From IMG/VR virus record IMGVR_UViG_3300045988_154913, positions 1-12,712 of that record: a DNA stretch of 12,712 nt. The stretch is one strand, 5' to 3'. This document shows, piece by piece, positions 1 through 12,712 of the stretch (positions are counted from its first letter, which is position 1; the number at the start of each line of letters is the position of its first letter). The notes under the pieces are model-generated. The model was not told the DNA's origin. It saw nothing but the letters and a program-made list of their open reading frames with translations, and did no database searches. The stretch comes from a virus. The translations under genes were made by a program, and so were the position numbers.

Positions 1-34
1 TACCCCCTCCTCTCTAGCAAGCAAGGCAATTTCC

Positions 35-120
35 CACTTTAGCATGGTAAAGTGCTAAAGTGCTAAAGCGTCAGCAATGCTTTAGTGTAGTAAAGTGCTA
101 AAGCGGTAAAGCGAGTACAA
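35..120. repeat. Two ~43-bp tandem units inside the ITR, each with one inverted CTTTAG element followed by three tandem 8-mers TAAAG(T/C)G(C/G)
   Basis: TAAAG starts at 48, 56, 64 and at 91, 99, 107. Inverted CTTTA lies at 37-41 and 80-84. Unit 35-77 aligns with unit 78-120 at roughly 70% identity. A small hairpin is possible: CACTTTA (35-41) with TAAAGTG (48-54). Mirrored at 12593-12678. Confidence 0.8.
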
Positions 121-185
121 ATAATTGGACTGATAGTAAGTACAAATAATTGGACTGATAAAGTGTACAAATATTTGGACTAATC
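115..185. repeat. Three iteron-like direct repeats GTACAAATA(A/T)TTGGACT(G/A)AT(A/C), phased at exactly 25 bp
   Basis: 21-mers start at 115, 140 and 165. The first two are identical and the third has 3 mismatches. Mirrored at 12528-12598 in the right ITR. Confidence 0.85.
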
Positions 186-290
186 AGAAAATAAAAAATA
201 ATACCCTTACGCAATAAAGAGCAAAAATATTTAGTTAAATAGAATTAACAAATACATAAAAGAAAAAATATAATGTTTACAATTTATTCA

Positions 291-319
291 TTGACAATTG
301 CGGTGTGGTGTGATATACT
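291..319 (+). promoter_or_regulatory. Near-consensus sigma-A/sigma-70 promoter in the left ITR, pointing inward
   Basis: TTGACA (291-296), 17-nt spacer, TATACT (314-319), with a TG at the extended -10 position (tgaTATACT). It lies ~65 nt upstream of the first RBS, AGGAGG (371-376). Confidence 0.7.
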
Positions 320-385
320 ATATATAGAGTTAAGGGAGAGGAACAAAAGAAAAAAACCTTAACAATAAAAAGGAGGTAAGCAGAA

Positions 386-601
386 ATGAAAAGACTTTTT
401 GTTTGTGAATGGTGTGACAAAATATTTGACGATGAGCATGAAGCCAAACAGTGTGAAAGAAGTCATTTGATACCCGTGAATGTAAACCCCACATTTTATA
501 CAGAGGGTGCTAAAATTCCAGAACTTGTAAAAGTTGATTTTGGAGCAGAGGAAGCAATTTACAGACGTATAAAAGGTGCAACAATGCCACAGGGGGAGTA
601 A
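386..601 (+). CDS. Small Zn-ribbon/zinc-finger-like protein (71 aa), function unknown, first gene behind the ITR promoter
   Basis: AGGAGG RBS 9 nt upstream of the ATG. Residues C7-x2-C10-x12-C23-x3-H27 (FVCEWCDKIFDDEHEAKQCERSH) have the spacing of a C2H2-type finger, with Cys in place of the first His. Confidence 0.75.
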   Translation: MKRLFVCEWCDKIFDDEHEAKQCERSHLIPVNVNPTFYTEGAKIPELVKVDFGAEEAIYRRIKGATMPQGE

Positions 602-603
602 AC

Positions 604-765
604 ATGAAGATAACAATAAAATCAATCGTAACAATCCTACTAACGGCTGTATTTTGTTTGTTATCACTAGCCGGAAAGATAACAAGTGAACAGTACATGA
701 CAGTTTTTACAACTGTAATTGCGTTTTACTTCGGAACTCAGTTTTCAAAAAATGGTAAAGTCTAA
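604..765 (+). CDS. 53-aa two-TM membrane protein, holin candidate (not in the supplied ORF track)
   Basis: Hand translation: MKITIKSIVTILLTAVFCLLSLAGKITSEQYMTVFTTVIAFYFGTQFSKNGKV. GGGGGAG RBS 5 nt upstream. Two hydrophobic segments and a short charged C-terminus. The stop overlaps the next start (TAATG at 763-767). Lies upstream of the endolysin. Confidence 0.6.
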   Translation: MKITIKSIVTILLTAVFCLLSLAGKITSEQYMTVFTTVIAFYFGTQFSKNGKV

Positions 766-974
766 TGTGGAGCACGATAATAGTTGCAGTGCTATCCCTG
801 ATAGGTACATTTATTGGTAGTTATTCAGGGTTTAAGCTAACAGAGTACCGAGTGCAACAGCTGGAAAAACGAGTAGCAGAGCATAACAATTTTGCTAGAA
901 GATTGCCAGTAGTTGAAGAGCAAATAAAAGTAATTAACCATAGATTAACAGATTTAGAGGTAAAAGAAAAATGA
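765..974 (+). CDS. 69-aa protein with N-terminal TM anchor plus coiled coil, holin-like or lysis accessory (BhlA/UviB-like architecture)
   Basis: The hydrophobic N-terminus (WSTIIVAVLSLIGTFIGSY) is followed by a heptad-like charged helix. Translationally coupled on both sides (TAATG upstream, ATGA downstream). Confidence 0.6.
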   Translation: MWSTIIVAVLSLIGTFIGSYSGFKLTEYRVQQLEKRVAEHNNFARRLPVVEEQIKVINHRLTDLEVKEK

Positions 975-1639
975 CATTTAAGGAATATATTTCTAAAACC
1001 CTAGGAAAATCAATTGAGTTTGACGGGGTTTACCCGTATCAGTGTTGCGACTTAGTTAATGATTATATGCAAAAATGTTTTAACGTTTTTACATACTATC
1101 CATATAATTTTAATGCTCAACAGTATTTTACACGCTTCGAAGAGGTATCGGCTCTTGTAAAGAATTTTACAAAAATTTCAAATACTCCTGAGTTTGTACC
1201 AATGCAGGGTGATATATGTATTTTTAAGTCGGCTGATAATATCGGGCATATCTCAATAGCAACGGGCGATGGAAACACAAGCTATTTTTACAGTTATGAC
1301 CAAAATTGGAATGGGCATAACTTTGTAGCAAAAGAGAGGCACACGTATACTAATTTTTTAGGTGTTCTGAGATATAAAGGCAATTCACTTGACAATTCAG
1401 GACTAAAACGTGGGGATAACAATGCAGGGGTTTACGCTTACAAAATGATGTTAAAATTGGCAAAAACTTGTAAAATAATTAGTACAAGTGTTGATTTTAA
1501 CGGCATTTATGGTAAAGGCACTGAAAAAGCTACAAATGAGATTTTGCGAAAACTGAAAAAGAAAGAGAATGGAATAGCAGGAGCGAAACTAATTAATGCA
1601 CTTTATGAAGCCATTCTTGACAAAATAGTTAATTTTTAA
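971..1639 (+). CDS. Endolysin: N-terminal CHAP peptidase/amidase domain plus C-terminal putative peptidoglycan-binding domain (PG_binding_1-like)
   Basis: CHAP signature: catalytic Cys context YPYQCCDLV, His context NIGHISIA, then YSYDQNW. The C-terminal part (LKRGDNNAGVYAYKMMLKLA...FNGIYGKGTEKATNEILRKL) resembles PG_binding_1 repeats. Confidence 0.85.
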   Translation: MTFKEYISKTLGKSIEFDGVYPYQCCDLVNDYMQKCFNVFTYYPYNFNAQQYFTRFEEVSALVKNFTKISNTPEFVPMQGDICIFKSADNIGHISIATGDGNTSYFYSYDQNWNGHNFVAKERHTYTNFLGVLRYKGNSLDNSGLKRGDNNAGVYAYKMMLKLAKTCKIISTSVDFNGIYGKGTEKATNEILRKLKKKENGIAGAKLINALYEAILDKIVNF

Positions 1640-1725
1640 CAGTTAATACGTTATGTGAGCATTTAACAATACAACAGCAAATTGATAATAATTAACATTT
1701 ACAAAATAAGAGTGCTAAACCGCTA

Positions 1726-1755
1726 TTGTTATCTAACGTACATAACTATTATATT
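1726..1755 (+). promoter_or_regulatory. Weak candidate promoter just upstream of the poly(A) tract
   Basis: TTGTTA (1726-1731), 18-nt spacer, TATATT (1750-1755). A start near 1762 would put the A52 run at the 5' end of the SSB-candidate mRNA. The match is weak and chance is plausible in AT-rich DNA. Confidence 0.25.
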
Positions 1756-1765
1756 AAACAAATTA

Positions 1766-1819
<54 letters not shown>

Positions 1820-1839
1820 ATGGAAAGAGGTTTTAAAAC

Positions 1840-2178
1840 ATGAATGGTTTTAATGTGAACATGAGCAAAAAGGATATTTTTAACGCTAAGAGTGGAAGTA
1901 TTTCAATCAAGACAACAGAAGCGAGCGAGTGGCACACTGTTTCAGGCTGTGCAGTGGTAGAAAATGGTGGACTTGATAGAGATAAGAAACCATGTGATAT
2001 TGGCTACATCGCTACAGACATTGGAGTTTTTGGGTTCTCTTCTAAGGTTTGTCTTGACCACATGGAAGAATTGGCAGACATTCTCAGCGAGTGCCTAAAC
2101 GCAGGCGAAGAAGTAAAGGTAAGATTTGTCAAAGGCAAGTCAACCAATGGTGAATTTTACTCAATCCAGATACAGTAA
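1840..2178 (+). CDS. Candidate single-stranded DNA-binding protein, phi29 p5-like (112 aa)
   Basis: GAGG RBS 9 nt upstream. Length and several local motifs (DIFNAKSGS; FSSKV...ELADIL; VKVRFVKGKSTNGEFYSIQIQ) resemble phi29 p5 as I recall it (KIFNAQTGG; SAISKT...ASDLIDL; FKVKVVQGTSSKGNVFFSLQL). The similarity is from memory and unverified. Confidence 0.45.
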   Translation: MNGFNVNMSKKDIFNAKSGSISIKTTEASEWHTVSGCAVVENGGLDRDKKPCDIGYIATDIGVFGFSSKVCLDHMEELADILSECLNAGEEVKVRFVKGKSTNGEFYSIQIQ

Positions 2179-2209
2179 ATAACAAAATCGGCAGAACGTG
2201 GTAATAAAA

Positions 2210-2225
2210 GTTGCCACGTTGCAAC
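2210..2225. promoter_or_regulatory. Palindromic 16-mer element, one-mismatch copy (GTTGCCACGTTGCAAC)
   Basis: 15/16 match to GTTGCAACGTTGCAAC. Located 23 nt upstream of the portal ATG, just 5' of its RBS. Confidence 0.7.
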
Positions 2226-2248
2226 CGATTGAAAAAAGAGGTGAAAAA

Positions 2249-3190
2249 ATGGGTTCAAAAATAAAGCCATGGAACTGGAGCGAATTTGGAGTTTCAAACA
2301 TAGACAAAACACAACTAACTAGCTACTATTACAAAATGTTGCTAAATCGTGTTATCAATATGTTTACATGGGATAACTTACCAGATACCATTGATGAACA
2401 GGTGATGAACTTTTGGCTATTTGTGGCAGGAAGAGTTGTGTTCACTGAGTTCAATGGGAAACTATATGCACTAAATGGAAATTATGGAGGTTATCCTAAC
2501 GAGTATTATTTGCCTACAGAATTTGTTATTGCCAATCCAATTTTAGGAAGTAAAATTGTAAAGTTAGACGTTGACGGAGTGGCAATGTTTAACAGTGATA
2601 CCGACAAATATCCCACACAAACAATGACAGGTGGTTTGTATCCTATACTAACACTAACAGCAAATATGCTAGCCGATTGTGTGGTAACAATATCCAGTGC
2701 ATTGAAAAACGGCAGAGTTCAGACCGCATTTTTGTGCAAAGATGATACAGTGAGAATTGCAGGTGAAAAAGTTCTAAAACAGTTATATAACGGCAATCCT
2801 GCTGTTATGATTGACGACACAATTTTAAACTGTATTACACCGATAAAAATGGCAGATAATACAAGTGTTGCTACAATCCTACAGCAGACTGTTGAAACGT
2901 ATCAATTTTGGCTTGCAAATTTTTACAATTCAATCGGAGTAAATGCAAATTTTAACATGAAACGAGAACGGCTAAATACAGCAGAGGTTAATATTAATGA
3001 TAGTGCATTATTTGTAAATGTTATTAATATGTTGAATAACCGACAGCAGGCAGTTGATAAAATTAACAAAATGTTTGGTACAAACATAACTGTTGAAATT
3101 TCTGAGGAATGGAAAGACTTAACAGAAACTGAGGAACCCCCTACAGAGGAAGAGGGAAAAGACAATGCGGAAGATAATAACGCTGAATGA
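2249..3190 (+). CDS. Portal / head-tail connector (upper collar), phi29 gp10-like (313 aa)
   Basis: Start moved from the track's GTG at 2198 to the ATG at 2249, which has a GAGGTG RBS 7 nt upstream; the upstream extension merely translates the palindrome. FTWDNLPDTID resembles phi29 gp10 FEWENLPPTIN, and IGVNANFNMKRERLNTAEV resembles LGIKNANLEKKERMVTDEV. The length matches gp10 (309 aa) and the C-terminal tail is acidic. Confidence 0.8.
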   Translation: MGSKIKPWNWSEFGVSNIDKTQLTSYYYKMLLNRVINMFTWDNLPDTIDEQVMNFWLFVAGRVVFTEFNGKLYALNGNYGGYPNEYYLPTEFVIANPILGSKIVKLDVDGVAMFNSDTDKYPTQTMTGGLYPILTLTANMLADCVVTISSALKNGRVQTAFLCKDDTVRIAGEKVLKQLYNGNPAVMIDDTILNCITPIKMADNTSVATILQQTVETYQFWLANFYNSIGVNANFNMKRERLNTAEVNINDSALFVNVINMLNNRQQAVDKINKMFGTNITVEISEEWKDLTETEEPPTEEEGKDNAEDNNAE

Positions 3191-3842
3191 GTGGGTTGAA
3201 AAGTTTCCCACTATAAATACTATCTTTGACAAGGTATCAGCAGACTTGAAATTATTTACAGTTTTTACATCGGCTGAAATGTTCTCATATTTTGTAAACA
3301 AGTTTGGTGAGCGTGGTTTTTATCTGTATTATGATAGCGAAAATGTCACAAATAATACTAATAGAGTGAAACAGGCAAGCGACTATATAGCATTATATGG
3401 TAAATCTCACAAATACGAGTACGACAAGTTAGTTGATACTCTATCATTGGAATATAATCCCATTGAAAACTATTCCATGACAGAAAAAGGAGCAGACACA
3501 AGAACACCAAACATCACGCAAACAAACAGGGGTGTAAATACAAATACTGTAGGGGTTGACACGTCAATTACAACTGGAAAGACAACTTTTGACAAATCTG
3601 ATAGTTTTATCAATGATACAAAAACTACCAATACGGGAACTAATACCGATACGCAGGATATAAACACTACAGTTACCACGGCAGGAGATGAAAAAACTGT
3701 ACATGAATTTACAAGAAGTGGTAATATAGGAGTTACCACGTCACAGCAGATGATTGAAAGTGAACGTCAATTAGCCATGTTTTCTGTAGTTGATTTATTC
3801 GTCAAGGCAATTGCCGATATAATTCTAATCGGAGTATATTAA
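3165..3842 (+). CDS. Lower collar / tail-tube candidate (phi29 gp11 position), 225 aa
   Basis: Immediately follows and overlaps the portal gene by 26 nt, the same gene order as phi29 10-11. Contains an EYNPIENY motif, a long Thr/Asn-rich beta-type stretch and GNIGVTTSQQMIESE near the C-terminus. The assignment is mainly positional. Confidence 0.5.
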   Translation: MRKIITLNEWVEKFPTINTIFDKVSADLKLFTVFTSAEMFSYFVNKFGERGFYLYYDSENVTNNTNRVKQASDYIALYGKSHKYEYDKLVDTLSLEYNPIENYSMTEKGADTRTPNITQTNRGVNTNTVGVDTSITTGKTTFDKSDSFINDTKTTNTGTNTDTQDINTTVTTAGDEKTVHEFTRSGNIGVTTSQQMIESERQLAMFSVVDLFVKAIADIILIGVY

Positions 3843-3845
3843 AAA

Positions 3846-4133
3846 ATGCAAAAAGTGAGAAGCCCGACATATGCGGAAAATTATGTCAATCTTGCAAGAG
3901 CAGTTGTGTTAAAAGTAGTAGTAGATACACTCCAAGGCAAGAAAGATTTAAAAGACTATATTTTATATAGTGATGATTTTGTGTTTTGGTTATGCCTTGC
4001 AGATTGGTTAAAATATGAAAATGTTATTAAAGATAAGTTTTCATGTTTTAAAGGGATTGACAATACGTTGAGAAAGAAACTAAACACATATTATCGCCTT
4101 AAAGGTGAAGAAATAAAGAGAGGTAAATTATAA
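3846..4133 (+). CDS. Hypothetical protein (95 aa); occupies the scaffold-gene position upstream of the capsid gene but is not scaffold-like in composition
   Basis: The ORF fills the gap exactly and its stop overlaps the capsid start (TAATG at 4131-4135). The sequence is basic and rich in aromatic residues, unlike the acidic helical phi29 gp7. Confidence 0.6.
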   Translation: MQKVRSPTYAENYVNLARAVVLKVVVDTLQGKKDLKDYILYSDDFVFWLCLADWLKYENVIKDKFSCFKGIDNTLRKKLNTYYRLKGEEIKRGKL

Positions 4134-5287
4134 TGGAAGTTACACAAATTGCCACAATTTTGAATGAAGCACAGCAGGAAATAATCGGTGAGGGTGCTAT
4201 AACAACGGAAAATCTTGAAAACGTTGTCGACATGGGCAAGCAGATACTTGAAGTGACAGATGTTGACAATTACGTCCGTAAACTGATTGATAAAGTCGGT
4301 AGGACGACTTTTGTTGACCGAGTTTACAATTCGACAGCTCCCGACATTTTGGTGGATAATTGGAAGTATGGTTCTGCGATGCAAAAAGTTCGTTGTGAAA
4401 TGCCTGATGCTGTTGAGAATGACAGCTGGAAACTAACCAATGGTCAAAGTTATGACCCATTCGTATTTACTGCACCTAACGTTCAGTCAAAATTTTATGA
4501 TAGCAAGGTAACGTACGAAGTGCAGATGTCATTTACAGAAATGCAGGTCAAGAGTGCATTTAATTCACCTGCTGAAATGAATAGCTTTTTTGCTATGATT
4601 GAAAACAGAATACGTTTTAAGCTCACTTTGTCAAATGACATACTTAAAACACGAACTGTTAATAATCTTATCGCAGAGAAGATACACAGCAATAACAATG
4701 TTGTTAATCTTTTGACAATGTATAACACAGAGTTTACTCAGCCCCTGAAAGCGGACCACGCTCTTATGGATAAAGATTTTCTAAGATATGCAATTGGCAA
4801 AATCAAGGAGTATATCAAGTACATTCAGCGTCCGTCAATGCTGTTCAATGACGGCGGTTACACAACTTTCACTCCTGAAAGTGACATGAAAATGGTGCTT
4901 TTGTCACGATTTGTAAATACTGCTGAGGTTTATCTACAGAGTGACACGTTCCACAATGACCTTGTGAAGCTAAGTGGGTATTCTGAGGTTCCATACTGGC
5001 AGGGTAGCGGAACGGGTGAAACGTTTGATTTTGCAGAAATTTCAAAAATCGATGTTACAACTGCTAGTGGTAACAAGGTATCTCAGTCGGGTATTATTGG
5101 CACTATTTTTGACCGTGATGCCTGCATGGTATGTAACGCCAATCCGAGAGTTACAAGTATTTACAATCCAAAAGGAGAATATTGGAATTATTTCTACAAG
5201 TACGATGCAAGCTATTTCAATGATACCATGGAAAATTGTGTTGTATTTATAGTAGCAGACACGTCAAAAAACAGCATAACAAAATGA
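4133..5287 (+). CDS. Major capsid protein, phi29 gp8-like (384 aa)
   Basis: GAGAGG RBS. The C-terminal motif NPKGEYWNYFYKYD...NCVVFIV resembles phi29 gp8 NPRGLYWNYYYHVW...NAVAFV as I recall it. Size and position are appropriate. Confidence 0.8.
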   Translation: MEVTQIATILNEAQQEIIGEGAITTENLENVVDMGKQILEVTDVDNYVRKLIDKVGRTTFVDRVYNSTAPDILVDNWKYGSAMQKVRCEMPDAVENDSWKLTNGQSYDPFVFTAPNVQSKFYDSKVTYEVQMSFTEMQVKSAFNSPAEMNSFFAMIENRIRFKLTLSNDILKTRTVNNLIAEKIHSNNNVVNLLTMYNTEFTQPLKADHALMDKDFLRYAIGKIKEYIKYIQRPSMLFNDGGYTTFTPESDMKMVLLSRFVNTAEVYLQSDTFHNDLVKLSGYSEVPYWQGSGTGETFDFAEISKIDVTTASGNKVSQSGIIGTIFDRDACMVCNANPRVTSIYNPKGEYWNYFYKYDASYFNDTMENCVVFIVADTSKNSITK

Positions 5288-5296
5288 TAGTTAAAA

Positions 5297-5331
5297 ACGT
5301 TGCAACCCTAAAAAAGTTGCAACGTTGCAAC
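5297..5331. promoter_or_regulatory. Composite palindrome site after the capsid gene: half-site GTTGCAAC (5299-5306) plus perfect 16-mer (5316-5331)
   Basis: ACGTTGCAAC (5297-5306) is the reverse complement of GTTGCAACGT (5316-5325), giving a potential 10-bp stem with a 9-nt loop. The 16-mer ends 19 nt before the ATG at 5351. Confidence 0.75.
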
Positions 5332-5350
5332 TATATTGAGGTGAGAAAAA

Positions 5351-5842
5351 ATGCCAATTATAACAACGTATCAATGTTCGCAGGACGTACGGACAGTTCA
5401 AAAAACATTAACAAATGCAATTAATTATAATTGTGAAATACTGGATACTATGAACAGTTTTACACCCCGTATACGATTATTCTGTACGTCTGAAACGTTT
5501 AACGCAAATATGGTGTATATACCATTTTTTGATAGATACTATCACATAATTTCAGCGGACATTGAGAGTGCAGAAACTATTATTTTACAGTGTGAATTTG
5601 ATATATTTACATATTCAGTAGCACTATTATCTAGCGAATTTTTAGTTACTAGAAATGAAAATATTGGAAGTACATATATCCCTGATACAATGTTACCATT
5701 AAAAGGTAATAAGGAAATGAAAGTAATAGAGTTTACTGGTGGAGATTTTAACCTTGACACTGCTACGGTAAATAGTTACAATTTTGTGCTAAATGTGGCA
5801 GGTGGTGGAAGTAATCAGGGAACTGCGGAGAATGGAGTGTAA
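5351..5842 (+). CDS. Tail protein (163 aa) resembling the N-terminal domain of phi29 gp9-type tail knob proteins
   Basis: GAGGTGA RBS. The pattern NMVYIPFFDRYYHIISADIESAETIILQCEFDIFTYS resembles the gp9 N-terminal region ([41 protein letters not shown], from memory). Confidence 0.45.
   Translation: MPIITTYQCSQDVRTVQKTLTNAINYNCEILDTMNSFTPRIRLFCTSETFNANMVYIPFFDRYYHIISADIESAETIILQCEFDIFTYSVALLSSEFLVTRNENIGSTYIPDTMLPLKGNKEMKVIEFTGGDFNLDTATVNSYNFVLNVAGGGSNQGTAENGV
5754..5782 (+). promoter_or_regulatory. Candidate internal sigma-A promoter upstream of the 682-aa tail gene
   Basis: TTGACA (5754-5759), 17-nt spacer, TACAAT (5777-5782), 65 nt upstream of the ATG at 5847. It matches 11/12 consensus positions, but one such hit by chance is not unlikely in AT-rich DNA. 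Confidence 0.3.
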
Positions 5843-5846
5843 TTAA

Positions 5847-7895
5847 ATGAAACTAAATACAGAAATATGGGGAACAGGTGAACAAATATCAGGAGCTCCA
5901 GAGGGTTTTAAAGGATTGCGTGCAGATTTTCCAAGATTAGCCGAATGGATTGAACAAGGAAAGGTAGCACTAAACCAGCATTTTGACCAATCGTTTTTAA
6001 TCGGAACAAATTTCAAAAATCCAAATTCTATAATGATGTGGTGCGATAAATACAATCGTGACCCATCATTAAATACATTTTCTGACCCTATCGACACAGG
6101 AGTGTTTTTGGCAGGTACTGACCGTATGTCAAACTATGGTGCATTTTTTGAGGTTTCGCAGTGGAGGGTTGCATATGACCAAACAGAAACGTCATATATT
6201 AATTATAAACCGCTTTTGAAATTTCCATTTAAAGGTTTATGTTTTTTACCCGTTATACATTCATGTATTAACAAATCAGTAACTAACGATATACACCAGT
6301 TTTCAATAAACGATTATTATAATGGTGAAAACGAAAATACGTATCCATATATCATAGGAATAGAACTCCGCCCATATATTGGTAATTCAACTACACGTGG
6401 CTGGTATTTAAACGACTTTATTGGCAGAATAACCCCCTGTATGTATGGAGATTTTCAAAATTTTAGAAAGGATACATCGTATACTAATGCTGAAATGTTT
6501 CCTATGGGTGGAAATTTATTTGTTGACCGTTTAACATGGGGTTTGATGAACAGTAGCGTTTATTATGAATCAGGATATAATACCACAGATTGGTTAGTTA
6601 ATACCCCATATGGTGACAAGTTATGGGAATTTGTGGCAGGAATAAGAGTTCACACCCATTTTAAGGGAACGAAAAAAGACATTTTTAAAATGTGTGCGAA
6701 TACGGGGTGCTATTGTGCATTATCTGAAAATGCAGCTAAGCGTGATGATTTGAACAATCCGAGCGACGATATAATTATTGGAAAAATGGGTGAAGATGGC
6801 TCAATTTCTGACACTGTTTTACAGGGCGATGGCATTAAAGATAACACACAGCAAGACAAATGGAATGAACCTGATGATACAGGAGACGGATTTAACGGAA
6901 TTGAAAATACTGACCCGAACAACTACACAGACAAAATAGATTTGAATAAACCTACACTATCAAATGTGAACGTTTTTAACCGCAGTTTTGCAGTTAATGC
7001 AAATACTGTAAAAAATTTGGCGGATTTTTTATGGAACGCAGACGAAACAAAATTTCAAGAAATTGTAAAAGGGTTAGCGTTAATGGGTGAAAATCCTATG
7101 AACGGCATAATTGATTTGCGTTTATTTCCGTTTAATGTAGCTTTGAAAAATTCGGCTACGCAAGCTGAACCGATTGTAATCGGCAGAACAAACACGGGTG
7201 TAAATGGTATTAAACTAACGGAAAATGTAAACAGTTTAATTGATTTAGGTGAATGCACATTTTTTACTAAATTCAAAAATTTCCTAGATTATGAACCATA
7301 CACGACAGCCCAGCTATATATTCCATATATTGGCGTTGTACCAGTATCAACAGCTGAATTTATGGGGCATAGAATTTCAGTAAAAATGATAGTCGACTAT
7401 ACCACGGGTGCAGGAACGGCAATTGTATTTAAAGACGATATACCATTCATTTACAGAAATGGTGTAGTAGGCGTATCGATTCCAATGACTGGAAACGACA
7501 GTACAAGTTATGCAAATACAGTTATCGGAAATGTGGTTAGCGGTGTAGTAGGTGGTGTAACATCAATTGCTAGCGGAAATATTGGCGGTATGGTTAGCAG
7601 TGCCGAGAAATTGTATAGCGGTTTTGCGACTGGTACTAATTACCAAGAAGCGAGTGCAAGTTCGCCGTCTGTTGCAACGTGGCAACCTCAACATTGTTAT
7701 TTCATAATTGACAGACCGATTTTAAACGTGCCTGACAATTACGGGAGAACTGTAGGTTATGCTTGTGAAAAAACTGAAAAACTATCAGATTTTAAGGGGT
7801 TTACAGTTGTTAGCAACCCTGAAATAAATTTCAGGTGTACAGACAGCGAAAGACAATATATAGTAAATATGTTACAAGGCGGTGTATTTGTATGA
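5847..7895 (+). CDS. Tail knob / distal tail protein (682 aa): C-terminal half gp9-like with a Gly-rich hydrophobic segment, N-terminal ~330 aa unassigned
   Basis: GGAGTG RBS 7 nt upstream. LYIPYIGVVPV..., then GNVVSGVVGGVTSIASGNIGGMVSS (compare the phi29 gp9 Gly-rich membrane-active loops), and a C-terminal ...TDSERQYIVNMLQGGVFV ending resembling the gp9 C-terminus. An acidic linker lies around aa 300-360. Confidence 0.5.
   Translation: MKLNTEIWGTGEQISGAPEGFKGLRADFPRLAEWIEQGKVALNQHFDQSFLIGTNFKNPNSIMMWCDKYNRDPSLNTFSDPIDTGVFLAGTDRMSNYGAFFEVSQWRVAYDQTETSYINYKPLLKFPFKGLCFLPVIHSCINKSVTNDIHQFSINDYYNGENENTYPYIIGIELRPYIGNSTTRGWYLNDFIGRITPCMYGDFQNFRKDTSYTNAEMFPMGGNLFVDRLTWGLMNSSVYYESGYNTTDWLVNTPYGDKLWEFVAGIRVHTHFKGTKKDIFKMCANTGCYCALSENAAKRDDLNNPSDDIIIGKMGEDGSISDTVLQGDGIKDNTQQDKWNEPDDTGDGFNGIENTDPNNYTDKIDLNKPTLSNVNVFNRSFAVNANTVKNLADFLWNADETKFQEIVKGLALMGENPMNGIIDLRLFPFNVALKNSATQAEPIVIGRTNTGVNGIKLTENVNSLIDLGECTFFTKFKNFLDYEPYTTAQLYIPYIGVVPVSTAEFMGHRISVKMIVDYTTGAGTAIVFKDDIPFIYRNGVVGVSIPMTGNDSTSYANTVIGNVVSGVVGGVTSIASGNIGGMVSSAEKLYSGFATGTNYQEASASSPSVATWQPQHCYFIIDRPILNVPDNYGRTVGYACEKTEKLSDFKGFTVVSNPEINFRCTDSERQYIVNMLQGGVFV
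7671..7686. promoter_or_regulatory. Palindromic 16-mer element, one-mismatch copy (GTTGCAACGTGGCAAC) inside the tail gene
   Basis: 15/16 match. It is in frame and encodes V-A-T-W-Q-P. Located 205 nt upstream of the ATG at 7892. Confidence 0.6.
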
Positions 7896-8443
7896 TGAAT
7901 GAATTTTATGCAAGTGGTTTAACAAATGAGCAATTGAAAGCGGAGATTTTAAGGCAAGGGCGTAAAGCAAATTTACGCCTTAGTCAATTGAAAAAAAGTG
8001 GAATGTACGGCAAGAACCCTATAATTTCTAGTAAATGGAATACGTTCCTACACGAAAGTAAATTTTCAACAAAAAAGAATTTTTTTAAGACGGGGTCAAA
8101 AGGCGAAAGCAGAGCAGAACTACTAAAACACTATGTACAGATTAGACAGTTTCTAGGACAGAAAACAACAGTGAAAGAAACAAAAGCTATCATGTCAAAA
8201 CACGCAAAACGTTTAAATATTTCTGAGGAAAATGTTGATAGAGTTTTATCAATTTTTGGTAATAGCGGAATAAGTGCAGAGTTACCGAATAGTGATTTTG
8301 TGCAACAATTTATTGCTGAAATGGTTGAAAACGGGTTTAGCGATAATGAAATAAATTCATTGTTGAACCGCCTTGAAAGTTCAGCACAAACACAAAATGA
8401 AATGTACGATTTAATGCGTGAACAATTACAAAAGCTTGAATAG
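7892..8443 (+). CDS. Candidate terminal protein (183 aa), assigned by position immediately upstream of the protein-primed polymerase
   Basis: Start set at ATG 7892, which overlaps the upstream stop as ATGA and has an AAGGCGGTG RBS. The track's 7835 start lies inside the tail gene. The N-terminal half is basic (RKANLRLSQLKKSG..., compare phi29 TP KAKIARTKKKYG) and the C-terminal half is acidic and helical. No direct homology was established. Confidence 0.35.
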   Translation: MMNEFYASGLTNEQLKAEILRQGRKANLRLSQLKKSGMYGKNPIISSKWNTFLHESKFSTKKNFFKTGSKGESRAELLKHYVQIRQFLGQKTTVKETKAIMSKHAKRLNISEENVDRVLSIFGNSGISAELPNSDFVQQFIAEMVENGFSDNEINSLLNRLESSAQTQNEMYDLMREQLQKLE

Positions 8444-8458
8444 TTGCAACGTTGCAAC
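8443..8458. promoter_or_regulatory. Palindromic 16-mer element, perfect copy
   Basis: GTTGCAACGTTGCAAC begins at the last base of the upstream stop codon (TAG 8441-8443) and ends 26 nt before the polymerase TTG start. Confidence 0.8.
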
Positions 8459-8484
8459 TATTCTTTTAAAAAGGGGTGTAATAG

Positions 8485-10620
8485 TTGATAAGTGTAAACG
8501 ATTTTGATTTTAACATTTTAAAAAATAATTTACAAACAGTTACAACCCGTACACGAGACAATCAATTTATAGAATATTACAATGCGCCTTTTGCGTTTGA
8601 CATTGAAACGTCCTCTTTTTACGACGGCGAAAACAAAAGAGCGTGTATGTATATTTTTATGTTTTCATTAAATGGAAATTATGTATACGGCAGAACATGG
8701 GAAGATTTTGATTTTACATTGAATAAGTTAAAAGAAGTATTGCAATTAAATGAATATAGAAGAATTATAATATATATTCACAATTTAGGTTATGAGTTTC
8801 AATTTCTAATCGGTCATGAACGTTTCAAAGATGTTTTTGCTAGAAATGCACGTCACCCTATTAAATGTACTATGAATGATTGTTTTGATTTAAAATGTAG
8901 TTTAATGCTTAGTGGCATGAATTTAGCAAAGACAGCGGACGACTTAACAAGCGTAAAAATACAAAAATTAACAGGTGATTTAAATTACAAACTTTTAAGA
9001 ACTTGGAAAACATTACTGACAAAAGAAGAATTAGGATATTGTGAGCATGACGTAAAAATTTTACATTATTTTATACTTGAAGAAATGGCAAAAAATGATA
9101 ATGATATAACAAAAATCCCATTAACAAAAACGGGATATGTTAGAAAATATTGCCAAAACTACATTAAAAAACAGACATATTATCCAAAATATAGAGAGAA
9201 GATTAAGAAGATAGCCCCCGTTGATAAAGACTTATTTTGCCTATTGCATAAAAGTTTTATGGGTGGTTATACCCATGCTAACTATATGTATGTGGGAATG
9301 GTAATGGAAAATGTTGCAAGTATTGATTTTACAAGTTCTTATCCCTCTGTTATGATTAGGAAGAAATATCCAATGCAACCATTTACAAAAGTTCACATAA
9401 AAGATTTAACAGATTTTAGATATTGTATTAAAAATTATCCTTGCGTTTTTGAAGTTGAATTAACTAACGTTATTGCTAAAAAATGTAATCACATTTTATC
9501 ACGTTCAAAATGCTCCGTTTGTAATAATGCAATAGTTGACAATGGGCGAATTGTATCAGCAGATAAAATATTTATATATTTTACAGATATTGATTTTAAG
9601 GACTTTGAACAATTTTATTCTTATGAACATTTATCAATTGGTAAATTTTACACGTCAAGTTATGGATATTTGCCCAAACAGATTATAGAATGTGCGTTAA
9701 AATTTTACAACGACAAAACCTCACTAAAGGGTGTGATAGGAAAAGAAGTTGAATATCTAGTCGGCAAAGGTATGCTAAATAGTTTATTTGGAATGTGCGT
9801 AACCAATCCAGTAAATGACGATATTGTTTTTGACGGCAAAGAATGGAATACAGAAAAAAAAGATATTGCAGAAGCATTACAAGAAAATTACATAAAGAAT
9901 AAAAAACAGGTATTAGTATATCAGTGGGGTGTGTGGATTACTGCATGGGCTAGGCACGAACTTTTTAAAGGTATATTGAAAATTAATGAAGATGTTATTT
10001 ATTGTGATACGGATAGTATAAAATTCTTAAACTATGAAAATTACAAAAACTGGATAAATGAGTATAACAAAAACTGTATTAATGAGATTAACAAAACATT
10101 AAACTATTATGAAATTGATTTGAATTTAGCTAAACCTAAAACAATTAAAGGACTTGAAAAACCTCTGGGGATATGGGATTTTGAGGGAGTTTACGCCCAT
10201 TTCAAGACACTAGGTGCAAAGCGTTATGCTTATGAGCAGGACGGGAAATTTAATATAACAGTTTCTGGATTAAATAAAAAGTGTGCTGTTCCGTATATAG
10301 TTGCAACGTTGCAACCATTTGAATTTTTTGATAATGAAATGTATATACCGAAAGAGTATACAGGCAAAAATACATTGACATATATTAATGACCCATACAA
10401 AATTATGGTAAAAGACTATCAAGGAAATTATGCCGAAGTATCTGAAAATAGCTACATACACATGGAGGAACAGGATTATAACATGTCACTATCCGAACAA
10501 TTCATATATTATTTAATGTGTGGTACAAATTTCGGTAGCGGTGCAAAAGAGCATACATTATTTGAGAAAAGTCAAGAATTGGCTACAAATTTCTGGGAGT
10601 GTGATTTTAATGAAAAATGA
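8485..10620 (+). CDS. Protein-primed family-B DNA polymerase (711 aa)
   Basis: ExoI FDIETS, ExoII HNLGYEFQF, ExoIII YCEHDVKIL, motif A DFTSSYPSV, motif B KGMLNSLFG, motif C YCDTDS, and KxY in GAKRYAY. The TTG start (8485) with an AAGGGGTG RBS is required, because the first in-frame ATG lies downstream of ExoI. Confidence 0.95.
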   Translation: MISVNDFDFNILKNNLQTVTTRTRDNQFIEYYNAPFAFDIETSSFYDGENKRACMYIFMFSLNGNYVYGRTWEDFDFTLNKLKEVLQLNEYRRIIIYIHNLGYEFQFLIGHERFKDVFARNARHPIKCTMNDCFDLKCSLMLSGMNLAKTADDLTSVKIQKLTGDLNYKLLRTWKTLLTKEELGYCEHDVKILHYFILEEMAKNDNDITKIPLTKTGYVRKYCQNYIKKQTYYPKYREKIKKIAPVDKDLFCLLHKSFMGGYTHANYMYVGMVMENVASIDFTSSYPSVMIRKKYPMQPFTKVHIKDLTDFRYCIKNYPCVFEVELTNVIAKKCNHILSRSKCSVCNNAIVDNGRIVSADKIFIYFTDIDFKDFEQFYSYEHLSIGKFYTSSYGYLPKQIIECALKFYNDKTSLKGVIGKEVEYLVGKGMLNSLFGMCVTNPVNDDIVFDGKEWNTEKKDIAEALQENYIKNKKQVLVYQWGVWITAWARHELFKGILKINEDVIYCDTDSIKFLNYENYKNWINEYNKNCINEINKTLNYYEIDLNLAKPKTIKGLEKPLGIWDFEGVYAHFKTLGAKRYAYEQDGKFNITVSGLNKKCAVPYIVATLQPFEFFDNEMYIPKEYTGKNTLTYINDPYKIMVKDYQGNYAEVSENSYIHMEEQDYNMSLSEQFIYYLMCGTNFGSGAKEHTLFEKSQELATNFWECDFNEK
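10300..10315. promoter_or_regulatory. Palindromic 16-mer element, perfect copy inside the polymerase gene
   Basis: It is in frame and encodes V-A-T-L-Q-P. Located 294 nt upstream of the ATPase ATG at 10610. Confidence 0.7.
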
Positions 10621-11701
10621 ATACTATTCACTAAAAAAGATTAATAAGTTAAACGCACTATACAATTTAATTATAGGGCAACGTTCAAACGGTAAAACAT
10701 ACGCAGTATGCAAACAAGAAATAGAGGGATATTTCAAAAATAATTTTAGATTGGCATATATTAGAAGATACGATGAGGAAATTATGCCGAAAAATATCCA
10801 AAGTTTGTTTAAACCACATTCAGCATTAATTGAAAAACTATCCAATGGCCGGTTTAACAGCACTACATACAAAAATAGGGAATTTTTCCTATATAATACA
10901 GATACTGAGGAAAAATGTGAACAAAGTTTTTGCAAGTGCTTTTCTTTAAATGCCTGGGAGCGTACAAAAGGTGCAGATAACGGATATTTTAAATATATTC
11001 TATTTGATGAATTTATGACCCGTTCTTTTTATCTTAATAATGAATTTGTTATATTTACTCAACTTTTATCCTCTATTATGCGTGATAGAGATAACACTGT
11101 TATTTACATGATAGCAAATACTGTCAATCAATACTGCCCATATTTTGCCGAGATGGGCTTAGGTAAAATTTCAGATATTAAACAGGGTGACTTGAAGTTA
11201 TTTACATATGGTGATAGTGAATTAACCTTAGCTCTGGAATACTCAGACAGCAGGGGCCAAACTGGAAAAGTTAGTAAATACTTTGCGTTTGACAACCCAC
11301 AATTGAAAATGATAACTACAGGTCAATGGGAAATAAAAAATTACCCACACGCACCATTTAAAATTAAAAAGGAAAATATTGTATATAGGGCTTATATATT
11401 TTTTGATAGTGATATTATAGCTTGCAATATTGTACATTATAACAATAGCGTATTTCTATTTTTTAACATTCAAACAAAAACGGAAAATCTCGATTTAAAA
11501 AAGAAGATTGTATACAGTTTTGAAACTGATACGAACCCCCTACACGTCCAGTCACTAGCAGAACAGCCGACAGACGTACATAAACTTATTAATAATTTAA
11601 TAACATTTAATCGTGTGTTTTATGCAGATAATTCAGTAGGTGAAATTGTTAGAAACTGGATAAACGCACAAAGCAAACACGCTATCAGTTTGAGAACATA
11701 A
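10610..11701 (+). CDS. DNA packaging (encapsidation) ATPase, phi29 gp16-like (363 aa)
   Basis: Start set at ATG 10610 (GGGAGTG RBS, 11-nt overlap with the polymerase gene). Walker A is GQRSNGKT and Walker B is YILFDEF. The size is close to gp16. Confidence 0.85.
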   Translation: MKNEYYSLKKINKLNALYNLIIGQRSNGKTYAVCKQEIEGYFKNNFRLAYIRRYDEEIMPKNIQSLFKPHSALIEKLSNGRFNSTTYKNREFFLYNTDTEEKCEQSFCKCFSLNAWERTKGADNGYFKYILFDEFMTRSFYLNNEFVIFTQLLSSIMRDRDNTVIYMIANTVNQYCPYFAEMGLGKISDIKQGDLKLFTYGDSELTLALEYSDSRGQTGKVSKYFAFDNPQLKMITTGQWEIKNYPHAPFKIKKENIVYRAYIFFDSDIIACNIVHYNNSVFLFFNIQTKTENLDLKKKIVYSFETDTNPLHVQSLAEQPTDVHKLINNLITFNRVFYADNSVGEIVRNWINAQSKHAISLRT

Positions 11702-11707
11702 AAATAA

Positions 11708-11740
11708 CCCCGTGAGATTTTCTCATGGGGATTATTTTTT
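11708..11740. terminator. Bidirectional rho-independent terminator between convergent transcription units
   Basis: The stem CCCCGTGAG (11708-11716) pairs with CTCATGGGG (11722-11730), giving 9 bp including one G-T wobble, around the loop ATTTT. It is followed by ATTATTTTTT on the + strand and by TTATTTT on the - strand. Confidence 0.8.
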
Positions 11741-12023
11741 ATAATACATATTCTCTTAATACTGCCTGAATATTCGTCATTGTAGGTTTTACATACTCTT
11801 TATCATACGCATCACACAATAAATCACTTATGTTTTCATATCTCAAATAGCCGTTAGGTGCTATTTCCTGATTATCTAAAAACCACTCAACAGCCACACA
11901 CTCAACTGTATTTGTTATAGTGTCAAATATAATCATCACAATGGGTTCACCTGATTTGTTTGCACTGTTATATCTGCCTACTGCCTTTTTAATTCCCTTA
12001 ACCTCAGTACCATTAATTTTCAT
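11739..12023 (-). CDS. Hypothetical small protein (94 aa), right-arm leftward gene
   Basis: Start set at MKINGTEVKG (ATG 12023-12021), with an AAAGGA RBS and the palindrome 18 nt upstream. The track's longer version merely translates through the palindrome (LQRCN). Confidence 0.7.
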   Translation of the reverse strand: MKINGTEVKGIKKAVGRYNSANKSGEPIVMIIFDTITNTVECVAVEWFLDNQEIAPNGYLRYENISDLLCDAYDKEYVKPTMTNIQAVLREYVL

Positions 12024-12072
12024 AATATTCGTTTCCTTTCTGTTGCAACGTTGCAACTTTAAAATTTTTATT
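12017..12072 (-). repeat. Copy 1 of a 56/57-bp direct repeat (leader cassette: AT-rich box, palindrome, RBS, ATGAAAA)
   Basis: 12017-12072 equals 12295-12351 except for one extra A in an A-run (AAAA versus AAAAA). Confidence 0.9.
12042..12057. promoter_or_regulatory. Palindromic 16-mer element, perfect copy
   Basis: Lies 18 nt upstream of the 94-aa gene start on the minus strand. Part of a duplicated 56-bp leader cassette. Confidence 0.8.
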
Positions 12073-12076
12073 TCAC

Positions 12077-12301
12077 TTATAAAGTGGGCAGTGTTTTTAT
12101 TTCTTTCCAGTCCCACCAATTACAATTGGTGTTTTCGGTTATATAATCAAAAACATCTTTTTCCTTAACGTGTGTAGGATTAACTCTATAGCCATTTAAT
12201 CTTAAATCACTAATAAAATCGCTTTTGCGATTGTATTCACTTTCAATTATTACATACCGCTTTGTGTCCTTGTCATATACGCTTGCTTTGTAGGTTTTCA
12301 T
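12077..12301 (-). CDS. Hypothetical small protein (74 aa), first gene behind the right ITR promoter
   Basis: Start set at MKTYKASVYD (ATG 12301-12299), with the same RBS and leader as the 94-aa gene. No recognisable motif. Confidence 0.7.
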   Translation of the reverse strand: MKTYKASVYDKDTKRYVIIESEYNRKSDFISDLRLNGYRVNPTHVKEKDVFDYITENTNCNWWDWKEIKTLPTL

Positions 12302-12351
12302 AATATTCGTTTCCTTTCTGTTGCAACGTTGCAACTTTAAAAATTTTTATT
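12295..12351 (-). repeat. Copy 2 of the 56/57-bp leader cassette; its distal 8 nt extend into the right ITR
   Basis: See copy 1. The offset between copies is 278 nt. Confidence 0.9.
12320..12335. promoter_or_regulatory. Palindromic 16-mer element, perfect copy
   Basis: Lies 18 nt upstream of the 74-aa gene start and 8 nt inside the inner edge of the right ITR. It is therefore between the ITR promoter and the gene. Confidence 0.8.
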
Positions 12352-12712
12352 GTTAAGGTTTTTCTTTTGTTCCTCTCCCTTAACTCTATATATAGTATAT
12401 CACACCACACCGCAATTGTCAATGAATAAATTGTAAACATTATATTTTTTCTTTTATGTATTTGTTAATTCTATTTAACTAAATATTTTTGCTCTTTATT
12501 GCGTAAGGGTATTATTTTTTATTTTCTGATTAGTCCAAATATTTGTACACTTTATCAGTCCAATTATTTGTACTTACTATCAGTCCAATTATTTGTACTC
12601 GCTTTACCGCTTTAGCACTTTACTACACTAAAGCATTGCTGACGCTTTAGCACTTTAGCACTTTACCATGCTAAAGTGGGAAATTGCCTTGCTTGCTAGA
12701 GAGGAGGGGGTA
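12344..12712. repeat. Right inverted terminal repeat (ITR)
   Basis: Reverse complement of nt 1-371 with a 2-nt homopolymer length difference. The window ends exactly at the repeat end. Confidence 0.95.
12394..12422 (-). promoter_or_regulatory. Mirror copy of the ITR promoter in the right ITR, pointing inward (leftward)
   Basis: The minus strand reads TTGACA (12422-12417), 17-nt spacer, TATACT (12399-12394). It is upstream of the two minus-strand genes. Confidence 0.7.

Follow-up and report, generated by a model that had tools for sequence, protein, structure and literature searches.

A palindrome of 16 bp, GTTGCAACGTTGCAAC, recurs along the window, that is, the whole stretch of 12,712 nt analysed here (IMG/VR virus record IMGVR_UViG_3300045988_154913, positions 1 to 12,712), which is a complete 12.7-kb genome of a phi29-like podophage with perfect 354-bp inverted terminal repeats. 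What is the element for? In our judgement it is fairly likely that a DUF3102-like helix-turn-helix (HTH) protein, encoded by phages and acting as a dimer, has the 16-mer as its cognate site on double-stranded DNA; the predicted DNA-binding domain of this protein is similar to that of ParB/Spo0J/Noc. We infer both that the palindrome is bound and that binding has an effect, from the comparison of related phage sequences and a structural model of the protein.

Five perfect copies and two copies with one mismatch are present in the window, all where an earlier note on this DNA had placed them, and no others are found up to 3 mismatches. Such a number is not expected by chance, as that note had also held: shuffled sequences hold a mean of 0.10 copies, and 0/200 shuffles reach seven. 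There are 13 occurrences of the octamer GTTGCAAC, for an expectation of 0.28. The leftmost copy is the variant GTTGCCACGTTGCAAC at 2210..2225, 23 nt before the start of the portal gene (ATG 2249). The perfect copy at 5316..5331 follows the major capsid gene and lies 19 nt before ATG 5351 of a 163-aa gene. Slightly upstream, at 5290..5306, there is a degenerate copy, GTTAAAAACGTTGCAAC; the extra octamer reported at 5299 does exist, but it is the right half of this degenerate copy and does not stand alone. The other variant, GTTGCAACGTGGCAAC, is at 7671..7686 within the 682-aa tail gene, where it codes for VATWQP, 205 nt before the gene of the terminal-protein candidate. Between that candidate and PolB is the perfect copy at 8443..8458, 26 nt before TTG 8485, its first base doubling as the last base of a TAG stop codon. 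The perfect copy at 10300..10315 is within PolB and codes for VATLQP in a length-variable loop, about 295 nt before the packaging ATPase gene. On the right arm, perfect copies at 12042..12057 and 12320..12335 each lie 18 nt before the start of a minus-strand gene, of 94 aa and 74 aa, respectively; the latter copy stands between the terminal-repeat promoter and the gene, at about +53 to +68 of the predicted right-arm transcript. The five copies before start codons are directly 5' of a Shine-Dalgarno sequence, with gaps of 23, 19, 26, 18 and 18 nt, just as first described. The other two copies, at 7671 and 10300, lie within genes and are read in one common frame, V-A-T-(W/L)-Q-P, which corrects the earlier picture.

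Are the sites kept during evolution? An IMG/VR scan for the exact 16-mer gave 18 close relatives, with genomes 85-90% identical to the window. Each site of the window has a counterpart at the same place in the 18 relatives, and both variants have identical substitutions there; the A6>C variant of the 2210 site is common to all relatives at that position. In the 19-genome alignment, the columns of the 16-mer are 0.99 conserved, against 0.87-0.93 for the 40-nt flanks, intragenic copies included. The positions are thus kept across close relatives, where the earlier note had advised looking for the motif, and the sites are under selection. Further sites of the relatives lie at the inner end of both terminal repeats, within the first gene of the left arm and before the 95-aa gene. 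Relative to this clade, the window lost the left-arm sites and the site before the 95-aa gene (3840..3850, about 3846), which is deleted. The lack of copies at left-arm genes, described earlier, is specific to the window, and all 18 IMG/VR relatives have left-arm copies.

Which protein could read the sites? The first gene behind the left terminal-repeat promoter in all 18 IMG/VR clade genomes codes for a protein of about 220 aa, here called p220. A copy of the motif stands 15 nt before the p220 ATG, between promoter and gene, and 7-9 further sites stand at the starts of gene blocks. For a wider comparison, capsid homologues number in the thousands, and genomes were taken at 70, 60, 57, 55, 43, 36 and 25-28% capsid identity. 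Outside the clade, hmmsearch with the p220 profile found homologues in L226, L213/L214 and L231 only, and these are exactly the lineages with a repeated palindrome. Among 44 genomes of the family, every one with a p220 homologue has 5-9 copies of one 6-N2/4-6 palindrome, and those without p220 have at most two copies each, except the subgroup of the window, which is nested in the p220-bearing clade.

The palindrome itself, still of 16 bp, differs between these lineages. L226 has ten copies of GTTCGGACGTCCGAAC, with the arm GTTCGG vs GTTGCA in the window; L213 and L214 have five copies of (G)TTGCGC-YR-GCGCAA(C), and L231 has five copies of GTTGCG-NNNN-CGCAAC. The arms differ symmetrically between lineages, and the central 2-4 nt vary among copies in L213/L214 and L231. 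Almost all of these palindromes sit a few nt 5' of the Shine-Dalgarno sequence, at junctions which include those after the capsid gene and before PolB, and in the clade, L226 and L231 a site immediately precedes the p220 gene. No repeated palindrome of such kind is found in L211, L224/L225, L227-L230 or the 16-17-kb phages. It had been proposed that the element is a tandem octamer read by a dimer of dimers; this is not general, because the 6-N4-6 and 6-N2-6 palindromes of the relatives are not tandem octamers.

p220 contains an HTH-like segment with weak Pfam HTH matches. The L226 homologue matches the PHROG 'ParB-like partition protein' (E = 2e-4), and two members of the p220 cluster are named DUF3102 in nr. 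An AlphaFold (AF2) model built on a 44-sequence alignment from the representative search has a predicted local distance difference test score (pLDDT) of 79.8, and of about 95 over residues 40-140; with a shallow alignment the score was 47 and the model unusable. The best Foldseek matches in the PDB are the Spo0J-parS complex 4umk (prob 0.99), Noc 7ng0, ParB 6t1f, 1vz0 and 7bnr, and VirB 3w2a, while the best viral structural matches (BFVD) are DUF3102 proteins. As modelled, the DNA-binding domain of p220 resembles those of ParB, Spo0J and Noc, at weak scores. The model has only about 60 helical residues ahead of the HTH, and an N-terminal ParB/Srx CTPase domain gave no Pfam match in the 8 or the 44 family members scanned. 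No ParA-type ATPase is found among the 16 genes of the window by Pfam and PHROG scans, nor among the called genes of the relatives. Three scans of viral collections with distant p220 representatives found nothing, and a third search for p220 homologues returned close relatives only.

The idea of an operator for an oligomeric DNA-binding protein is the best supported in kind among the earlier proposals, but the likely binder is the ParB-like/DUF3102-like HTH protein of about 220 aa, which the window does not encode. The 71-, 74- and 94-aa proteins, named before as candidate binders, have no DNA-binding signature in Pfam or PHROGs, and the same scans give no HTH or DNA-binding signal for the 95- and 112-aa proteins of the window. 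For the 71-aa protein, tblastn gives a match in most clade genomes but none in several motif-bearing relatives (L025, L029, L034 and L215); the 94-aa protein falls to 31-48% identity, whereas the motif does not change.

As an independent line of evidence, palindromes are also found inside the genes of distant p220 homologues in other phages. The p220 profile matched open reading frames in loci that had been picked solely for a single 16-mer, and there the 16-mer is within the homologue's gene, right after the HTH, coding for V-A-T-L-Q. In 18/88 IMG/VR loci found only through the exact 16-mer, it lies about 222 nt into such a gene (43-92% protein identity, tblastn), and homologues in a Spirochaete metagenome-assembled genome (MAG) and a 54%-GC genome contig (L186) carry it as well. 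In GenBank, 245 phages, most of them from Streptococcus, have a homologue gene, 'e3', that adjoins cro and is annotated as hypothetical. Twelve homologues from Streptococcus, Staphylococcus and Bacillus phages were chosen regardless of the motif (L251-L260 are among the GenBank loci). A 14-16-bp ACGT-centred palindrome occupies one fixed codon position after the HTH in 7/12 of these e3 genes (six perfect, one with a single mismatch), at codons ~74-79 of the gene following cro. The palindromes differ between homologues, for example CGTTCAACGTTGAACG, TTCGAAACGTTTCGAA, CTGACAACGTTGTCAG, TCCACGACGTCGTGGA, AGTCGACGTCGACT and GTTGCGACGTTGCAAC, GTTGCAACGTTGCAAC being one variant among them. The peptide at this position changes with the DNA (RSTLN, FETFR, LTTLS, STTSW, KSTST, VATLQ), and VATLQ is found in 0/149 family representatives; thus the DNA, not the peptide, is what is kept. 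The palindrome is single-copy in phage 20617 and in the taken stretches of the 18 IMG/VR loci. Because the 16-mer sits inside e3-like homologue genes, the single matches of the viral scan are not chance, and one 16-mer would recur in unrelated phages because it belongs to one specificity class of a widespread protein family.

There are also unrelated contigs with 2-15 copies of the 16-mer per stretch, one mismatch allowed: the L088 group (L043, L088, L009, L067, L081, L020, L033 and L040; one phage group of 44-56% GC), L022, L030 (66% GC), L024/L086, and L108, a Treponema MAG. Copies of the motif in the L088 group often stop 1 nt short of an ATG that lacks a Shine-Dalgarno sequence, the spacing being 1-19 nt in L088/L043, and partial second copies able to form long hairpins are seen (L067 758, L009 258). 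No protein of the window has a relative in these contigs.

Then what happened to p220 in the window? No homologue is found there by hmmsearch. The slot of the first gene after the terminal repeat is occupied by the 74-aa gene (12077..12301, minus strand), where relatives have the ~220-aa HTH gene on the left and a 94-aa-like gene on the right. The 74-aa gene is in none of the 18 close relatives and appears in three other samples: L248 and L249 have it in the slot of the left arm, and L250, like the window, on the right arm. From this gene content, the window and a few siblings appear to have replaced the p220 gene by the 74-aa gene while keeping the sites. The seven sites of the window are orphans, since p220 was lost. 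That sites are kept without p220 implies a p220-independent role, or reading in trans, or a recent loss. The 74-aa and 94-aa genes have a near-identical leader of about 55 nt, composed of an A/T tract, the 16-mer, the Shine-Dalgarno sequence and ATGAAAA (12298-12352 and 12020-12075, minus strand).

Some copies are part of longer stem-loops. At 2210 and 5316, the initial 11 nt of the 16-mer are base-paired to a partial copy that lies upstream, and an outer helix closes a stem-loop of about 45 nt. The one at 2187..2229 (plus strand) has an outer helix ATCGG/CCGAT and an inner 11-bp helix AACGUGGUAAU / GUUGCCACGUU, whose 3' strand is the first 11 nt of the 16-mer; the one at 5287..5334 (plus strand) has an outer helix AUAGUU/AACUAU and an inner helix AACGUUGCAAC / GUUGCAACGUU. 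At 8438..8463 (plus strand) the palindrome is extended about its centre to an 11-bp stem, GAATA...TATTC, of -14.6 kcal/mol. The 2210 stem-loop has a minimum free energy of -17 kcal/mol (z = -5.1) and an RNAalifold energy of -21.9 kcal/mol. Over 16 distinct sequences, 98.8% of its cells are paired, and 100% in the inner helix, where 7/11 pairs vary, on one side only and always via G.U, all 23 one-sided changes keeping the pairing. In its 5' arm, 6/7 wobble-capable positions vary and 0/4 wobble-incapable ones do (7/462 = 0.015). Because the G.U pairs would be A.C on the other strand, the constraint at 2210 acts on the sense RNA. The 5316 stem-loop folds at -21.2 kcal/mol in RNAalifold and all of its cells (100%) are paired; 4 genomes have a double change, U-A to G-C, and a change of C-G to U-G, which could be a single event or have been copied from the 2210 unit by gene conversion. 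At 8443, five flank pairs extend the palindrome, and the fifth is G-C in 5, A-U in 7, G.U in 6 and mismatched in 3 genomes. Drift is seen in the 5' arms but not in the 16-mer strand, a pattern that would fit a sequence-specific constraint on the 16-mer together with a pairing constraint on its partner.

Could the element then be mainly RNA? The intercistronic stem-loops would be processing sites of the RNase III or RNase Y type, 5'/3' stabilisers or attenuators, and the DUF3102-like protein would be irrelevant or would bind RNA. We hold this to be unlikely, though worth serious attention. The extended stem-loops at 2210, 5316 and 8443, the alignment folding of -21 to -22 kcal/mol at the first two, the pairing kept via G.U at 2210, the double change at 5316 and the drift of the 5' arms against a fixed 16-mer all speak for it, as does the persistence of the sites in p220-less genomes. 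Long polycistronic transcripts, which such elements would serve, are plausible because near-consensus sigma-A-type promoters, with the TG extension, are found by the promoter scan of the window in the terminal repeats only. However, what is common to all sites is just a hairpin of 6 bp, which as a bare 16-mer has -5.6 kcal/mol, with 10/200 shuffles folding as well, and the right-arm and intragenic copies have no stem extension. A structural hairpin needs no identical sequence in each copy, no palindromic loop and no co-occurrence with an HTH protein. In the L088 group, moreover, a hairpin 1 nt before AUG without a Shine-Dalgarno sequence would block initiation. The RNA hairpin of the earlier note is supported as a longer, conserved sense-strand stem-loop at three junctions, but not as the bare 6-bp hairpin.

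Several observations weigh against the reading of the 16-mer as a site of p220, and should be noticed. The fold matches of p220 are weak, with Foldseek E = 0.14-4 and TM scores (template modelling) of 0.3-0.4, and its profile searched against PDB sequences has no match to solved structures, only coiled-coil noise. Pfam DUF3102 (PF11300) is matched by just 2/44 family representatives, at best with 2e-4, and p220 itself (P0121) has no match at E <= 1. The window and at least L248-L250 are without p220, yet keep the motif at all standard places covered. In the L088 group and the other unrelated phages with several copies, no p220/DUF3102-like homologue is found in the taken stretches. The G.U-tolerant covariation means selection on RNA pairing, which a pure DNA-level model does not predict. 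Finally, the data would fit repression, partition or another regulatory outcome.

If p220 does bind the palindrome, it would be made early, bind the sites as a dimer and act as a genome-wide regulator. It might regulate its own gene via the promoter in the terminal repeat and obstruct RNA polymerase at the borders of gene blocks, in the manner of KorB on OB or the L5 repressor on stoperators. The sites of the window would then be readable in trans only, by the p220 of a co-infecting relative or by a homologue of the same specificity. The stem-loops at 2210, 5316 and 8443 would work without p220, so that in the window only the RNA layer would act in cis; for them we infer a role in mRNA processing, stabilisation or attenuation between gene blocks. 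A bolder extension, which we consider doubtful, is that ACGT-centred palindromes are the 'addresses' of a large family of DUF3102-like phage proteins that have a DNA-binding domain of ParB type, each address inside or beside its own gene, and that the window is read by foreign proteins only. The e3 gene of temperate Streptococcus-type phages has GTTGCAACGTTGCAAC once, the tiny lytic family has it 8-10 times and other phage groups have it 9-15 times; since unrelated phages share the address, a phage could have its genome bound by proteins that another encodes. If this were true, the reading of the window by foreign proteins might mean silencing by a resident prophage, or a way of sensing prophage induction.

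Might the reader be a host protein instead? The site would be a variant of host parS or the target of a host transcription factor, or else the 16-mer would be a generic dispersed repeat of the host genome. The 16-mer is like parS in length and in its ACGT centre, and some relatives carry the perfect host-type parS TGTTTCACGTGAAACA, recalling phi29, which carries five host parS sites, used with host Spo0J for spore entrapment (PMC2731898). With centres aligned, however, only 6/16 positions are identical to parS, and related lineages of phages have different palindromes, which follow a phage gene. In a scan of 185,579 species with one genome each, there are essentially single matches scattered over many unrelated phyla; almost all of the 120 genome stretches taken hold one copy, and more than two are found only in one Treponema MAG contig. 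A host factor and a host repeat, both raised before, are thus very improbable.

A promoter or core element for a phage-redirected RNA polymerase, with transcripts starting right after the motif, seems hardly tenable either. It would account for a short leader with a Shine-Dalgarno sequence here and for an ATG just 1 nt further on in the L088 group. The motif does always lie 5' of gene blocks, 18-26 nt (here) or 1-19 nt (L088/L043) from the start codon; no sigma-A promoter is found close by, and one related lineage encodes a 103-aa protein like sigma-70 region 4/GerE. But a perfect palindrome would fire both ways, the would-be -10 positions read GCYRGC in L213 and GACGTC in L226, the right-arm site is about 50 nt downstream of a consensus promoter, some copies are inside coding regions, and no sigma-like or polymerase protein is found in the window by Pfam and PHROG scans. 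The scan agrees with the earlier statement that no consistent -35/-10 pair surrounds the motif: no pair at 16-18 nt is in fixed register, and only 7671 gives a match, of chance level (9/12). Other known elements were rejected as well. For an intrinsic terminator, the sense-strand scan lists 10300 only, and weakly, 2210, 5316 and 8443 are flagged on the antisense only, and the minus-strand copies are followed by AGAAAGG and not by a U run. Sites of extracytoplasmic-function sigma factors (-35 TGCAAC), sigma-54, the LacI-family core (cre, PurR box), CRP/FNR and LexA do not agree in register when compared by eye.

It is scarcely credible that the motif is a recombination linker, a shared short sequence at module borders that lets related phages swap cassettes: the 74-aa cassette, flanked by the motif and an identical leader of about 40 bp, is found on the right arm (window, L250) or the left (L248, L249), and the identity-breakpoint signal reaches the 95th percentile at 8443 and the 85th at 7671, but 4/6 core sites are without such a signal (14th-53rd percentile), the strongest breakpoints are in the tail gene, off the sites, and 16 bp is short for homologous exchange. 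In all, the test for a recombination hot spot is positive at 1-2 of 6 sites only, and such behaviour is probably a by-product.

Besides the palindromes, true parS sites were seen in the family. Relatives whose capsids are 36-60% identical have the perfect bacterial consensus TGTTTCACGTGAAACA, in most cases downstream of the capsid gene or directly 5' of the Shine-Dalgarno sequence: at 5707 and 5729 in L209, at 5620 and 5644 in L221 (14-mer core GTTTCACGTGAAAC), at 744 and 5594 in L223, and at 9113 in L231, which has another at 4876 with one mismatch. The parS-bearing lineage of L209 and L223 is also the one that encodes the 103-aa sigma-70 region-4/GerE-type HTH protein (L209 1308-1619, L223 1233-1544; Pfam E = 1e-11), and in its terminal region the palindrome GTTACAAAATTGTAAC lies directly upstream of a TTGAAT-17-TATAAT promoter.

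As for the rest of the window, it encodes a phi29-type connector, a major head protein, a protein-primed PolB, a gp16-like packaging ATPase and a CHAP endolysin, with all genes on the plus strand but two small ones at the right end. No match was found among GenBank phages by megablast with the whole window; the CHAP domain is about 29% identical to staphylococcal phages, and the capsid 31-45% identical to Astrithr-like, Acinetobacter, Vibrio and Amedibacillus phages. The right terminal repeat holds a putative sigma-A-type promoter, TTGACA-17-TATACT with TG, at 12394..12422 on the minus strand, and its twin is at 291-319 on the plus strand, both called from the consensus match only. A strong, bidirectional terminator-like hairpin, CCCCGTGAGATTTTCTCATGGGG with a T run, is at 11708-11730 between the converging ATPase and 94-aa genes, and is the only clear terminator of the scan. 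Within the 200-nt non-coding gap after the endolysin gene, about 55 uninterrupted A (1765-1818) are directly 5' of the 112-aa gene; the run could be real, by slippage or as a spacer, or an assembly artefact. The terminal repeat has short direct repeats in arrays at 40-185, mirrored in the right repeat, with about five TAAAGTGCTAAAG-like units and three GTACAAATAATTGGACTGATA, which may be binding sites for replication or terminal proteins. The 71-aa protein is encoded by the first left-arm gene of the window (386-601) and has a zinc-finger-like motif, CxxC-x12-CxxxH. Rfam found no packaging RNA (pRNA) in the window, and the sole match was a sub-threshold microRNA (miRNA) on the 5316 hairpin.

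Why does this matter? To our knowledge, phi29, with p4, Spo0A and host parS, is almost the only one of the smallest tailed phages whose regulation has been worked out in detail. A different regulatory scheme appears to operate in a large family of phi29-like phages of 12-13 kb, most of them uncultured: 5-10 palindromes at the borders of gene blocks go with one ParB-like DNA-binding protein of the phage, and the two change together from lineage to lineage. Nothing on the motif string and nothing useful on DUF3102 was found in the literature, and a 2024 review of phi29-like phages makes no mention of palindromes, parS or ParB. The system may provide a first functional lead for DUF3102-like proteins, which are common early genes beside cro in temperate phages of Gram-positive bacteria and of which each appears to have a cognate palindrome at a set place within its gene. 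Its natural protein-site pairs make the specificity code directly testable, and the window, as a natural deletion of the protein with the sites kept, is a ready control to separate a DNA role from an RNA role.

Is there any known system to which the element can be compared? It differs from the p4 sites of phi29, in that no p4-like protein appears in the PHROG and Pfam scans and the motif is unrelated to the p4 site, an inverted repeat with A-tracts beside a late promoter of the A3 type. Intercistronic RNase III sites of T7 and SP82, and repetitive extragenic palindromic (REP) elements, are stable stem-loops with an internal loop between cistrons; the stem-loops at 2210 and 5316 are built alike, with an outer helix, an internal loop and an 11-bp inner helix, but their helices do not exceed 16-17 bp, an extended stem is lacking in most copies of the 16-mer, and cleavage is only proposed here. 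In the linear prophage N15, palindromic SopB centromere sites are scattered among expression units, and the cognate origin site of lambda O is embedded in the coding sequence of its binding protein. Similarly, palindromes for a phage DNA-binding protein would be scattered among expression units here, and the e3-like homologues have a site in the binder's gene; but there is no sign of plasmid-like maintenance or of theta/sigma replication, the genome being replicated by protein priming from its ends.

With ParB/Spo0J-parS, the element has in common a 16-bp ACGT-centred palindrome, several sites on a phi29-like genome, a site inside or beside the gene of the protein (the parS of B. subtilis lies inside spo0J) and, at weak scores, the nearest predicted fold. 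Unlike in that system, the site is not the parS consensus TGTTNCACGTGAAACA and true parS is found in other lineages of the family; p220 is phage-encoded and has neither the N-terminal CTPase domain nor a ParA partner; the sites are at gene starts and not near the genome ends; and the partner protein is absent from the window. The element would therefore stand outside ParB/parS for its different site and the missing CTPase domain and ParA, as a dispersed set of palindromic operators with a ParB-like DNA-binding protein. KorB of plasmid RK2 is a ParB-family protein that exerts genome-wide transcriptional control from about a dozen OB palindromes at varying distances to gene starts, and it is a CTP-dependent sliding clamp working with KorA (PMC11790492). 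Here too, one ParB-like DNA-binding protein would read one short palindrome spread over a small replicon, but a CTPase domain cannot be recognised in p220, nothing like KorA was found as a partner, and a regulatory effect is deduced. As for mycobacteriophage L5, Brown et al. in 1997 reportedly described stoperators as many repressor sites in short intergenic gaps of long operons, which block elongation, one overlapping the early promoter region. These stoperators are asymmetric 13-mers in one orientation, bound by a monomeric repressor of a temperate phage; the sites here are palindromic and belong to a lytic-type protein-primed phage, with no integrase or repressor in the window by Pfam and PHROG scans. 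By analogy, then, the element would work most like KorB-OB or the L5 stoperators, and its likeness to ParB-parS would lie in the shape of the site and the fold of the protein.

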